The notes under the pieces: model-generated
Seen by the model: the letters and a program-made list of their open reading frames with translations, nothing else
What the model was told of the DNA's origin: nothing
Database searches by the model: none
Assembly: GCF_024298765.1 (NCBI RefSeq)
Contig: NZ_CP101214.1
Strand: one strand, 5' to 3'
From: Escherichia coli
GTDB lineage: Bacteria; Pseudomonadota; Gammaproteobacteria; Enterobacterales; Enterobacteriaceae
Length of the DNA: 6,988 nucleotides
Position numbers and translations under genes: made by a program
In this document: positions 4,059 through 6,988 of the stretch, piece after piece
Position numbering within the stretch: the first letter of the stretch is position 1
Layout: each line of letters begins with the position of its first letter

Positions 4059-4190
4059 ATGAAAATAATAATTTTTCTAATTACAATATTATTCTTGTCA
4101 GGATGTCAAGCAAACTATATTCGTGATGTACAAGGAGGAACCGTTGCACCATCTTCGTCTTCTGAACTGACGGGGATCGCGGTTCAGTAG
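4059..4190 (+). CDS. ckl: Colicin lysis (bacteriocin release) lipoprotein, 43 aa
   Basis: ATG at 4059, TAG at 4188-4190; not in the ORF track because it is short. [43 protein letters not shown] has a signal peptide with an L-S-G-C lipobox and the conserved mature region of colicin lysis proteins. Last gene of the colicin operon. Confidence 0.85.
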
Positions 4191-4199
4191 AAAAGATCA

Positions 4200-4226
4200 A
4201 AGGATCTTCTTGAGATCCTTTTTTTC
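4200..4226 (+). terminator. Putative rho-independent terminator at the end of the colicin operon (overlaps the RNA II promoter)
   Basis: Inverted repeat AAGGATC (4200-4206) / GATCCTT (4214-4220) with a 7-nt loop, followed by a T-run (4219-4225), 10 bp after the lysis gene stop. Confidence 0.55.
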
Positions 4227-4238
4227 TGCGCGTAATCT
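4210..4238 (+). promoter_or_regulatory. RNA II (replication primer) promoter
   Basis: -35 TTGAGA (4210-4215), 17-bp spacer, -10 TAATCT (4233-4238). Same architecture as the pMB1/ColE1 RNA II promoter in pBR322, recalled from memory. Confidence 0.75.
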
Positions 4239-4249
4239 GCTGCCTGTAA

Positions 4250-4352
4250 ACGAAAAAACCGCCTGGGGAGGCGGTTTAGTCGAAGGTTAAGTCAGTTGGG
4301 GACTGCTTAACCGGGTAACTGGCTTTAGTGGAGCACAGATACCAAATGCTGT
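4250..4352 (-). ncRNA. RNA I antisense copy-number control RNA (about 100 nt)
   Basis: Minus-strand promoter: -35 TTGAAG (complement of 4383-4388), 18-bp spacer, -10 TACACT (complement of 4359-4364), start near 4352 (ACAGCAUUUGG...). 3' end has a hairpin, AACCGCCT / AGGCGGTT at 4257-4276, followed on the minus strand by a U-run. Fully complementary to the 5' end of RNA II. Confidence 0.8.
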
Positions 4353-4358
4353 CCTTCC

Positions 4359-4388
4359 AGTGTAGCCGCTATAAGGCTTCAACTTCAA
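4359..4388 (-). promoter_or_regulatory. RNA I promoter
   Basis: TTGAAG -35 and TACACT -10 on the minus strand with an 18-bp spacer, arranged as in pBR322 RNA I. Confidence 0.7.
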
Positions 4389-4784
4389 GAGTTCTGCGTA
4401 TCTAAATCCACTATCCAGTTACCAATGGCTGCTGCCAGTGGCGTTAAGTCGTGTCTTACCGGGTTGGACTCAAGACGATAGTTACCGGATAAGGCGCAGC
4501 GGTCGGGCTGAACGGGGGGTTCGTGCACACAGCCCAGCTTGGAGCGAACGACCTACACCGAACTGAGATACCAACAGCGTGAGCTATGAGAAAGCGCCAC
4601 GCTTCCCAAAGGGAGAAAGGCGGACAGGTATCCGGTAAGCGGCAGGGTCGGAACAGGAGAGCGCACGAGGGAGCCACCAGGGGGAAACGCCTGGTATCTT
4701 TAAGTCCTGTCGGGTTTCGCCACCTCTGACTTGAGCGTCGGTTTTTGTGATGCTCGTCAGGGGGGCGGAGCCTATGGAAAAACG

Positions 4785-4815
4785 CCAGCTGCGTGGCCTT
4801 TTCCGGGTTCTTGTT
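4785..4815 (+). other. Approximate origin of replication (RNA II to DNA transition) of the ColE1-type replicon
   Basis: About 555 nt downstream of the RNA II start, in the sequence aacgccagctgcgtggccttttccgggttc, which corresponds to the pBR322 ori neighbourhood. The exact switch point cannot be fixed by eye. Confidence 0.5.
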
Positions 4816-5039
4816 TTTTGCTCACATGTTTCTTTTGGTGTTATCCCCTGATTCTGTGGATAACCGCATTACCGTCTTTGAGTGAGCTGATACCGCTCGC
4901 CGCAGCCGAACGACCGAGCGGAGCGAGTCAGTGAGCGAGGAAGCGGAAAAGCGCCTGGACGAGCATTTTCTCCTTACGCATCTGTGCGGCATTTCACACC
5001 CGGCATGGTGCACTTTTCATACAATCCTCACTGATGCCA

Positions 5040-5195: not shown

Positions 5196-5387
5196 TCAGA
5201 GGTTTTCACCGTCATCCCCGAAGCGTGCGAGGCAGCTGCGGTAAAGCTCGTCAGCGTGGTCGTGAAGCGCTTCGCAGATGTCAGCCTGGTCGTCGGCGTC
5301 CAGTTCATTCAGTTTTTCCAGCAGGGTCAGCGTCTGGCTTCTGATGAAGCGGGCCATGTTAAGGGCGGTTTTTTCCTGTTTAGTCAC
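5196..5387 (-). CDS. rom: Rom/Rop (RNA-one modulator), 63 aa
   Basis: GTG start at 5387. Translation VTKQEKTALNMARFIRSQTLTLLEKLNELDADDQADICEALHDHADELYRSCLARFGDDGENL is nearly identical to pBR322 Rop as I recall it. The track's longer 143-aa ORF is an upstream in-frame extension. Confidence 0.9.
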   Translation of the reverse strand: MTKQEKTALNMARFIRSQTLTLLEKLNELDADDQADICEALHDHADELYRSCLARFGDDGENL

Positions 5388-5430: not shown

Positions 5431-5778
5431 ATGATACCGGTGAAACGCGAAAGGATGCTCACGATACGGGTCACGGATGAGGAACATGCGCGGCTGCTGG
5501 CACGTTGTGAGGGAAAACAACTTGCGTCATGGATGCGTAAGGTCTGCCTGGGGGCACCGCCATCGAAAACGTCAGGTCTTCCGACACTGGCACCGCCGCT
5601 GTTGCGCCAGTTCGCTTCGGTCGGCAATAACCTGAATCAGATAGCCCGGAAGATAAACAGCGGACAGTGGTCGGGGCATGACCGGGTTCATGTGGTGGCT
5701 GCACTGATGGCCATCGGACGTGAACTGAGTGAGCTGAGGGATGAGGTCCGTAAACAGGGAGAACGGGATGATAGTTAA
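5431..5778 (+). CDS. mbeC: MbeC/MobC-family mobilisation accessory protein (likely ribbon-helix-helix)
   Basis: ATG at 5431 has GGAGG 6 nt upstream; a second in-frame ATG at 5455 (MLTIRVTDEEHARLLARCEGKQLASWMRK...) would give 107 aa. N-terminus matches the MbeC remnant I recall in pBR322. Divergent from rom; its stop region overlaps the mbeA start. Confidence 0.8.
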   Translation: MIPVKRERMLTIRVTDEEHARLLARCEGKQLASWMRKVCLGAPPSKTSGLPTLAPPLLRQFASVGNNLNQIARKINSGQWSGHDRVHVVAALMAIGRELSELRDEVRKQGERDDS

Positions 5779-6988
5779 GTTTCATGCCAGGGGAAAAGGC
5801 GGTGGCAGTGGTCCGGTTGATTACCTGCTGGGCCGGGAGCGTAACCGGGAAGGGGCGAGAGTTCTGCGGGGTGCTCCCGAAGAGGTGCGGGAACTCATCG
5901 ATGCCACGCCGTTTGCGAAAAAATACACCTCGGGGGTTCTGTCTTTTGCAGAGCAGACCCTGCCACCGGGAGAGCGTGAAAGGGTGATGGAGAGCTTTGA
6001 GCGGGTACTGATGCCCGGTCTTGAAAAAAATCAGTACAGCATCCTGTGGGTGGAGCACCAGGACAAGGGGCGTCTTGAGCTGAATTTTGTCATCCCGAAT
6101 ATGGAGCTGGCGAGCGGAAAACGGCTCCAGCCCTATTACGACCGAGCAGACCGTCCGCGAATCAATGCCTGGCAGACACTGGTGAATCACCATTACGGGC
6201 TGCACGACCCGAACGCACCGGAGAACAGGCGGACACTTGTCACCCCGAATAATCTGCCGAAAGCGAAACAGGAGGCCGCAGAAGCGATTACGAGGGGACT
6301 GGAGGCTCTTTACCATGCCGGAGCACTAAAAACGCGTCAGGATGTCACTGAGGCGCTTACAGCGGCAGGTTTTGAGGTTGTGAGGACAACCAGGAGCAGT
6401 ATCAGTATCGCCGACCCGGAGGGTGGGCGTAATCTCAGGCTGAAAGGGGCGCTGTATGAGCAATCTTTTACAAATGGGGACAGACTTCGAGAAGAAACTG
6501 AAAGAGCGTGCCGTCTCTACAGAGAACATGCTGAACAGCGAGTTCAGGAAGCTCGAAGCGTCTGTAGACAGGGAACTGAACTTAAACGGGCAGAAAATCA
6601 GAGACGCTATCAGCGCACACACAGCAGCGGTGAAAGAACAACTGGAGACGCTGAACAGTGCCGTGAACGCGCAGTTCAGCGCCACAGAGAACGAACTGGC
6701 CCGGCGGCAGGAAGAGCTGCTCTGGAAGCTGGTCAAAGGGCGGATACTGTACCCGTCGCTGACGGCGCTTTGCGTCACGGGCGGGATTTTTCTGGCGTCA
6801 TGGGGGCTGATTCAGTGGCAGGAAAGCCGGATTGCGGCGAACATCCTGGCTATCAGGGACCAGGAAGAGACGCTGGCGAAACTCCGGGAAAAAACATGGG
6901 GTGTGACGTATCACGAGGGCAGGAACGGGAAATTTCTGGTGTTGCCGTCCGGGGTGAAGGGGGAAAACAACTGGACGGTGGAGAAGAA
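5768..6988 (+). CDS. mbeA: MbeA/MobA-family relaxase, 5' portion (ORF runs off the window end)
   Basis: ATG at 5768 overlapping the end of mbeC. N-terminus MIVKFHARGKGGGSGPVDYLLGRERNREGARVLRGAPEEV is typical of ColE1-family (MOB HEN-type) relaxases. No stop in frame through 6988 (407 codons), so it is absent from the ORF track. Confidence 0.9.
   Translation, partial: MIVKFHARGKGGGSGPVDYLLGRERNREGARVLRGAPEEVRELIDATPFAKKYTSGVLSFAEQTLPPGERERVMESFERVLMPGLEKNQYSILWVEHQDKGRLELNFVIPNMELASGKRLQPYYDRADRPRINAWQTLVNHHYGLHDPNAPENRRTLVTPNNLPKAKQEAAEAITRGLEALYHAGALKTRQDVTEALTAAGFEVVRTTRSSISIADPEGGRNLRLKGALYEQSFTNGDRLREETERACRLYREHAEQRVQEARSVCRQGTELKRAENQRRYQRTHSSGERTTGDAEQCRERAVQRHRERTGPAAGRAALEAGQRADTVPVADGALRHGRDFSGVMGADSVAGKPDCGEHPGYQGPGRDAGETPGKNMGCDVSRGQEREISGVAVRGEGGKQLDGGEE
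6456..6988 (+). CDS. mbeB: MbeB/MobB-family mobilisation protein, nested in an alternate frame within mbeA (3' end beyond the window edge)
   Basis: ATG at 6456 (alternative in-frame ATG at 6474). MSNLLQMGTDFEKKLKERAVSTENMLNSEFRKLEASVDRELNLNGQKIRDAI..., with a predicted TM segment (ILYPSLTALCVTGGIFLASWGLI). Open to the window end. If the replicon is circular the frame would stop at window positions 26-28, just before mbeD. Confidence 0.65.
   Translation, partial: MSNLLQMGTDFEKKLKERAVSTENMLNSEFRKLEASVDRELNLNGQKIRDAISAHTAAVKEQLETLNSAVNAQFSATENELARRQEELLWKLVKGRILYPSLTALCVTGGIFLASWGLIQWQESRIAANILAIRDQEETLAKLREKTWGVTYHEGRNGKFLVLPSGVKGENNWTVEK

Follow-up and report, generated by a model that had tools for sequence, protein, structure and literature searches.

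The replication origin carried by this stretch of Escherichia coli DNA raises the question of how the first part of a primer RNA can differ so strongly from its counterparts in pMB1 and ColE1 when the sequence on either side of it is nearly the same as theirs, and what such a difference might mean for the plasmids with which the replicon can share a cell. The whole stretch analysed, 6988 bp in length, is referred to below as the window. The divergent segment, 4246–4420, is the first ~175 nt of the primer RNA II, with the antisense RNA I overlapping it, and we put at about 0.85 the probability that it is the specificity cassette of the replication origin of the colicin K plasmid pColK.

Identity and gene content of the plasmid

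The window is the complete circular plasmid pColK, opened inside mbeA. Many complete plasmids of the same length (6988 bp), from E. coli, Salmonella, and Shigella, match it end to end at 99.9% identity; besides colicin K (cka) and its immunity gene (cki), they carry exc2, rop, the mbe genes for mobilisation, and a lysis gene. The classical pColK-K235 (NC_006881, 8318 bp), the sequence of which was reportedly described by Rijavec et al. in 2007, matches the window over its full length and additionally carries an IS2-family transposase gene. Colicin K plasmids have been assigned to the “MOBRNA type 2” family of small ColE1-like plasmids (Branger et al., PMC6807383). The relaxase ORF of mbeA runs from 5768 to 6988, continues at 1–375, and is intact at 532 codons; in the identical plasmid pB1172_6988, RefSeq lists mbeA as a partial pseudogene, and the truncation suggested by that annotation was rejected in view of the intact ORF.

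Two further genes deserve mention for their position or function. The colicin K lysis gene (4059–4190) is placed from the RefSeq annotation of identical plasmids. The rop/rom gene (5196–5387, minus strand) codes for a 63-aa protein that stabilises the RNA I–RNA II kissing complex; it is assigned by its membership of the Rop family and from identical RefSeq plasmids, and 62 of its 63 residues are identical to ColE1 Rop. A scan of NCBIfam models gave no match for Rop.

Among complete E. coli genomes, 51 records contain the exact pColK cassette, on plasmids that vary in size, and about 90 more records contain a 97% variant. One multi-origin record, NZ_CP082064.1 (L096, 17,997 bp), was examined as a potential second replicon and dismissed as a pColK concatemer with three origins; several “complete” records of 13–14 kb and 20–23 kb are head-to-tail pColK multimers with partial deletions. 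All of these multimeric records could be either real multimers or artefacts of long-read assembly.

Anatomy of the control region

The lysis gene is followed by a terminator-like hairpin (4199–4221, plus strand), which was recovered by the terminator scan, is near-identical in ColE1, CloDF13, and pUC, and overlaps the −35 hexamer of the RNA II promoter. The larger stretch 4165–4238 is almost identical in ColE1, CloDF13, and pColK, the lysis genes themselves being ~14% different. The RNA II promoter P2 (4210–4238, plus strand) comprises a −35 element TTGAGA (4210–4215), a 17-nt spacer, and a −10 element TAATCT (4233–4238), with both hexamers and the spacer identical to those of pUC/pMB1 and ColE1. 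A generic sigma-70 scan of 4100–4900 scored zero promoters, and it is for this reason that the promoters are assigned by homology alone. From the homology to pUC and ColE1, the primer precursor RNA II would start at G4246 and extend on the plus strand to 4782; the origin motif GGCGGAGCCTATGGAAAAACG lies at 4764–4784, with the RNA-to-DNA switch placed by homology in its A-run at 4778–4782, and RNA II can therefore be taken as about 535 nt long.

On the opposite strand, RNA I (4249–4352, minus) would begin with a 5′ A opposite T4352 and end after the terminator U-run. By homology its length is ~104 nt, to which the 103 nt given in the earlier note comes near enough. Its promoter P1 (4359–4388, minus), recognised from the sequence and from homology, has the −35 element TTGAAG (4388→4383) and the −10 element CTACACT (4365→4359); the alignments to pUC and ColE1 display the ColE1 hexamers as kept and the spacer as diverged. 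The same note had described the entire segment 4246–4420 as the RNA I overlap: this description applies to 4246–4352 (~104–107 nt), the remaining 4353–4420 being made up of the P1 promoter and more of RNA II.

The conserved primer scaffold (4413–4790, plus) starts with CCAGTTACC and extends to the origin. CCAGTTACC is able to pair with GGTAACTGG (4314–4322); this pairing, of GGUAACUGG (4314–4322) with CCAGUUACC (4413–4421), is predicted when nucleotides 1–225 of RNA II are folded. The variable block therefore ends, on its right side, at a sequence that could pair back with the foot of RNA II hairpin 3. The whole arrangement is that of a ColE1-type replicon: the distance from P2 to the origin is that of the type (~535–555 nt) with the conserved scaffold in between, an RNA I of the typical ~100–110 nt with three hairpins fully overlaps the 5′ end of the primer, and, going by the annotation of identical plasmids, replication would proceed without a plasmid Rep initiator and with Rop as an accessory. 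Replicons of this type depend on host RNase H and DNA polymerase I.

The RefSeq/PGAP annotation in many records presents a competing picture, in which part of the region (4385–4528, minus) encodes a 47-aa “replication initiation protein”. Against this, the ORF sits inside RNA II with its conservation at the nucleotide level, has no match in the NCBIfam scan, and varies in length from plasmid to plasmid (47 aa in pColK, 52 aa in ColE1); ColE1-type replication, moreover, is not known to require a plasmid Rep protein. The coding interpretation is accordingly very hard to credit. The same label is attached to the ORF inside RNA II in pColK and in hundreds of ColE1-type plasmids, and it looks like a propagated annotation artefact.

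Structure of RNA I

The sole Rfam family found in the window is RNAI (RF00106), at 4350–4250 on the minus strand, with a score of 77.4 bits (E = 1.9e-13) against a gathering score of 47. The minimum free energy fold has a 9-nt 5′ tail followed by three stable hairpins at −39.6 kcal/mol, compared with a mean of −18.8 for shuffled sequences (z = −6.9). These results support the earlier note in its reading of the segment as the place where RNA I and RNA II control a ColE1-type replicon. An RNAalifold analysis of 13 RNA I homologues retains the three hairpins, with compensatory double changes at 10 of the 31 pairs.

The 5′ hairpin (4314–4343, minus) combines a ColE1-like stem with the loop CCACUAA (4325–4331), which, among the sequences compared, occurs only in pColK-type plasmids. 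The middle hairpin (4285–4312, minus) is CloDF13-like and has the loop CCCCA (4297–4301), corresponding to GGGG in RNA II. The 3′ hairpin (4256–4277, minus), with the loop CCCC (4265–4268), is the intrinsic terminator and was detected as such by the terminator scan. By its loops, the RNA I of pColK falls into the published “GGGG-loop” class, that of ColA and pCS36-4CPA, and it has a 5′ hairpin loop of its own. In the present comparison CloDF13 shares the loops of this class.

These observations bear on the notion that the divergent stretch is merely an unconstrained spacer shaped by neutral drift. The part at 4353–4420 does include the promoter spacer, which tolerates indels; yet the stability of RNA I relative to shuffles, the Rfam covariance match, and the compensatory stem changes in homologues speak for constraint, as does the fixation of the exact sequence in the 51 E. 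coli records. For 4246–4352 the structure and covariation already refute neutral drift, and as an account of the stretch as a whole it is next to untenable.

Divergence from ColE1 and pMB1

The reference used for pMB1 was a 589-nt pUC/pMB1 origin, which is 100% identical in many public records. Relative to it, the identity is 97.2% (35/36) over the upstream 4210–4245, drops to 67.2% over 4246–4420 (131 of 195 alignment columns, with several indels), and recovers to 97.8% over 4421–4780 (353/361). A Fisher exact test on 131/195 versus 353/361 gives p = 3e-24, and the drop far exceeds chance. The corresponding figures against ColE1 (NC_001371) are 96.2% (4194–4245), 66.5% (4246–4420), and 97.2% (4421–4780), declining to ~90% beyond the origin. 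The comparison from which the question first arose, namely a diverged 5′ part of RNA II followed by near-identity from about 4420 onward, is hence accurate, and the string quoted in its support, ctgcctgtaaacgaaaaaaccgcctggggaggcgg, is present in the window starting at 4240. Its boundaries are good as well: G4246 is the RNA II +1 position by homology, and near-identity is back at ~4413–4421 (CCAGTTACCAATGGCTGCTGCC).

The proposed alignment check could have found the loops to be the same; instead, none of the three RNA I loops is identical to its ColE1/pMB1 counterpart. The pColK loops, in 5′ to 3′ hairpin order, are CCACUAA, CCCCA, and CCCC, whereas those of ColE1/pMB1 are CUGCUGA, UUGGUAG, and U/CUGGUAG, and the loops of the pColK RNA I lack complementarity to the ColE1/pMB1 RNA II loops that would define that group. 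Over the full RNA I, pColK and ColE1/pMB1 are 68.4% identical. By way of calibration, ColE1/pMB1 and p15A are 74–75% identical in RNA I, and ColE1 and CloDF13 70%, the members of each pair belonging to different incompatibility groups. The differences in the loops, the middle hairpin, and RNA I overall lead to the prediction of an incompatibility specificity distinct from that of ColE1/pMB1.

A mosaic cassette

The earlier note saw in this locus a natural example of loop divergence taking place upon a conserved primer scaffold. This part of its interpretation is not borne out, as phrased, by the comparison with CloDF13 (NC_002119), which uncovers a mosaic, with a CloDF13-like run joined to a ColE1-like scaffold. 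At sites that distinguish ColE1 from CloDF13, pColK agrees with CloDF13 in 27 of 31 cases (27:4) across 4246–4352 and with ColE1 in 47 of 52 cases (47:5) across 4421–4790 (Fisher p = 9e-13). The CloDF13-like run extends over 4244–4326, and 4327–4420 is mixed. In terms of identity, CloDF13 matches RNA I (4246–4352) at 89% and the middle and 3′ hairpins at 92%, as against 79% for the scaffold (4421–4780). The pColK cassette is thus a mosaic of CloDF13-like middle and 3′ hairpins and a ColE1-like 5′ stem bearing a unique loop. This sits within flanks that are themselves shared: P2 hardly differs between ColE1, pMB1, and CloDF13, and the pColK primer scaffold is of the ColE1/pMB1 kind.

A pMB1/ColE1-type RNA I that diverged in place under selection for compatibility, the scaffold being held constant, would also produce flanks of 97–98% identity around a cassette of 67%. 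It would suit the 5′ hairpin in particular, in which the stem is ColE1-like and the change lies mainly in the loop, as point mutation gives, and it is established from ColE1 genetics that single loop changes create new specificities (PMC9458437). However, such a history would need convergence on an existing CloDF13-type sequence, indels too, to yield the agreement with CloDF13 at the informative sites of 4246–4352. Further, the middle and 3′ hairpins are common, almost exactly, to many replicons with ~80% scaffold identity, and the similarities of cassette and scaffold are uncoupled across the family. Divergence in place is for these reasons improbable, and the mosaic reading is retained.

The family-wide pattern was obtained by scanning species-representative genomes for the origin motif, which gave 91 stretches and, from these, 54 distinct non-pUC ColE1-type origins, those with enough upstream sequence being retained for the pairwise test. 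Over all pairs of the 54 origins, the identities of RNA I and scaffold correlate at r = 0.26; dozens of pairs combine at least 95% scaffold identity with at most 80% RNA I identity, and dozens are of the reverse kind. RNA I and scaffold similarity are thus nearly uncoupled across ColE1-type origins. Individual chimeras are also visible: one locus (L059) combines a 5′ hairpin of pMB1 type with middle and 3′ hairpins of CloDF13 type, and in another (L060) the RNA I of pColK is paired with an RNA I promoter region resembling that of pMB1. Some of the loci compared lie in non-enteric assemblies; these probably stem from contaminating laboratory vectors and may include engineered chimeras, and the argument for a mosaic rests on natural Enterobacterales examples.

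Many of the matches to the origin motif turned up in assemblies such as those of Streptomyces, Arthrobacter, and Hymenobacter and in Nitrospira MAGs (e.g., L003, L033, L034, L046, L024, and L036), and the RNA I region is identical to that of pUC in nine of the extracted origins. The RNA I of L034 is exactly what we take to be that of p15A, and the origins of L046 and L024 look CloDF13-like. The motif in such assemblies likely represents contamination of public data by cloning vectors.

As for how the mosaic arose, the incongruence between cassette and scaffold similarities suggests that ColE1-family replicons recombined with one another within the conserved flanks, which would be the most economical history. 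Diversifying selection, if it made evolutionary rates strongly unequal, could produce something like part of this pattern.

Copy control and compatibility

The antisense mechanism of ColE1 is known from the work of Tomizawa and others. Warren and Sherratt are said to have tested the incompatibility of ColE1, ColK, and CloDF13 in 1978, and a literature search on ColK compatibility yielded nothing usable. In ColE1-type plasmids, the loops of RNA I kiss complementary loops of RNA II, Rop stabilises the complex, and full pairing with RNA I blocks the RNA II fold that RNase H cuts into the primer (PMC9458437, PMC5935869). ColE1/pMB1, p15A, CloDF13, and RSF1030 constitute separate incompatibility groups, and loop changes may create compatibility without guaranteeing it or alone predicting it (PMC9458437). 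The diversity of ColE1-like plasmids has been surveyed, and among them are plasmids that coexist while differing in key mutations of RNA I (PMC8683028). In pColK, the plus strand of the cassette would specify the 5′ end of RNA II and the minus strand the ~104-nt RNA I together with its promoter, and kissing between the two RNAs would set the copy number and determine the interference among related plasmids. Because the middle and 3′ loops of its RNA I are rich in C and the 5′ loop is its own, none of them matching ColE1/pMB1, pColK is not expected to cross-inhibit with those replicons.

Natural evidence bearing on this expectation comes from E. coli B1172 (GCF_029536615.1), a complete genome from human faeces, in which pColK and a ColE1::Tn3 plasmid are present as separate circular plasmids. 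The former, pB1172_6988, matches 4151–4900 of the window exactly; the latter, pB1172_11599, encodes colicin E1, carries Tn3/TEM-1, and has a cassette 100% identical to that of ColE1. Since all three loops are unlike those of ColE1/pMB1, the replicons should be compatible, and this co-residence, taken with the loop differences and the low RNA I identity, makes it likely that pColK is compatible with ColE1/pMB1-type replicons. B1172 indicates that coexistence is possible; it is one genome, in which retention could have been aided by TEM-1 and by both colicin/immunity sets.

The converse would be that pColK is functionally incompatible, or weakly compatible, with pMB1/ColE1 through the shared Rop and scaffold and competition for host factors. 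That loop divergence is no guarantee of compatibility (PMC9458437), that pColK and ColE1 have almost the same RNA I 5′ tail and 5′ hairpin stem, and that only one co-resident genome appears among the 60 ColE1-cassette records listed would all be in keeping with this. Nevertheless, three differing loops, an RNA I identity of 68%, below that of the classical compatible pairs, and the two separate circular plasmids in one isolate weigh against incompatibility, to which we would give only a small chance; compatibility accordingly remains the favoured reading.

Other ColE1-type plasmids also occur alongside pColK-type ones. E. coli VR50 has a pColK-type plasmid together with pVR50D, which has the same middle and 3′ stems with CUGCAA loops. 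In Salmonella Derby RM004, pColK (6988 bp) is accompanied by a separate sul2 plasmid, pRM004_2 (6047 bp), the 3′ hairpin of which is identical to that of pColK, the middle hairpin one loop nucleotide off, and the 5′ hairpin different. The coexistence of these two implies that two shared loops need not mean incompatibility. The sibling plasmids pCAU16175_5, pVR50E, and pVR50F were set aside as compatibility evidence, these being Rep-protein replicons rather than ColE1-type ones.

A sister isolate of RM004 is the host of pRM001_1 (L095, NZ_CP117323.1, 11,944 bp, Salmonella Derby), a cointegrate of pColK and a sul2 ColE1-like plasmid in which the origin, rop, and the RNA I gene (at 8100–8000 and 1329–1228) are each present twice; the other locus of this set (L104) is NZ_CP117309.1. 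The cointegrate might be genuine, the two plasmids having fused where their mob/ori regions are homologous, or it might have been created by a false join in the assembly. Two ColE1-type replicons were also found in a single non-enteric assembly, that of Pseudomonas sp. A-RE-19 (L060 and L061, on NODE_56 and NODE_57). One RNA I of the pair is 97% identical to that of pColK, and the other has CCCC loops with different stems and a different 5′ hairpin; the pair is possibly contamination.

A tentative generalisation might be drawn, namely that RNA I specificity is assembled hairpin by hairpin via recombination, and that members of the widespread GGGG-loop class are told apart mainly by the 5′ hairpin. 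Under such a scheme, pColK would be a mosaic of three parts, with the middle and 3′ hairpins of the CloDF13 type, the scaffold that of ColE1, and the 5′ loop its own, and small changes in the middle loop might add to the discrimination made chiefly by the 5′ hairpin. The 5′ hairpin is singled out as the discriminator because pColK is found together with plasmids that have the other two loops in common with it (RM004; L060/L061). This generalisation is rather less likely to hold than to fail.

Implications for typing and vector choice

The plasmid, the antisense mechanism, and the role of RNA I variation in setting incompatibility are all already established, and RNA I divergence is an ordinary, described route by which related small plasmids come to share one cell. 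Thus, with pColK long sequenced, there is little importance here beyond good annotation; what may be mildly fresh is that the three-way mosaic is made explicit, and that the 5′ hairpin may discriminate within the GGGG-loop class. On the practical side, pColK should, judging by its RNA I loops, coexist with pBR322, pUC, and pET vectors, and it might interfere with CloDF13 (CDF) vectors. In the MOB-suite typing of PLSDB, pColK and ColE1 are both placed in rep_cluster_2350. They very probably differ in incompatibility specificity despite this common cluster: for ColE1-type plasmids, a typing scheme based on the conserved scaffold fails to follow incompatibility.

Comparison with known systems

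With ColE1/pMB1, pColK shares P2, the scaffold from RNA II nucleotide ~175 to the origin (97–98%), the origin motif, and Rop. The likeness extends into RNA I in the three-hairpin design and in the 5′ tail and 5′ hairpin stem, which are nearly alike. The differences lie in the three RNA I loops, the whole middle hairpin, and the loop of the 3′ hairpin, which is 3 nt shorter in pColK, the cassette being ~18 nt shorter overall.

The end of the lysis gene, the terminator, and P2 of CloDF13 are nearly identical to those of pColK. Its 3′ loop is the same, with one compensatory stem pair (G-C in pColK, A-U in CloDF13), and the sole difference in the middle hairpin is one deleted loop nucleotide. In contrast, the 5′ hairpin of CloDF13 differs in both stem and loop, with CUGCGAA against CCACUAA in pColK (3 of 7 loop positions), and its scaffold has insertions before the origin. 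A parallel may also be drawn with ColA and pCS36-4CPA, which have GGGG loops in RNA II hairpins 1 and 2 and a plasmid-specific third loop (PMC5935869). Compared by this published description, their loop arrangement is the same as that of pColK, with the third RNA II loop reading UUAGUGG in pColK and GUACAAG in pCS36-4CPA (PMC5935869). Finally, p15A has the three-hairpin plan and a similar 3′ hairpin stem (ACCGCC...GGCGGU) in common with pColK, but differs in its loops (CCUCCA, UUGGUAG, and CUGCAA), with identities to pColK of 73.6% in RNA I and ~81% in the scaffold.
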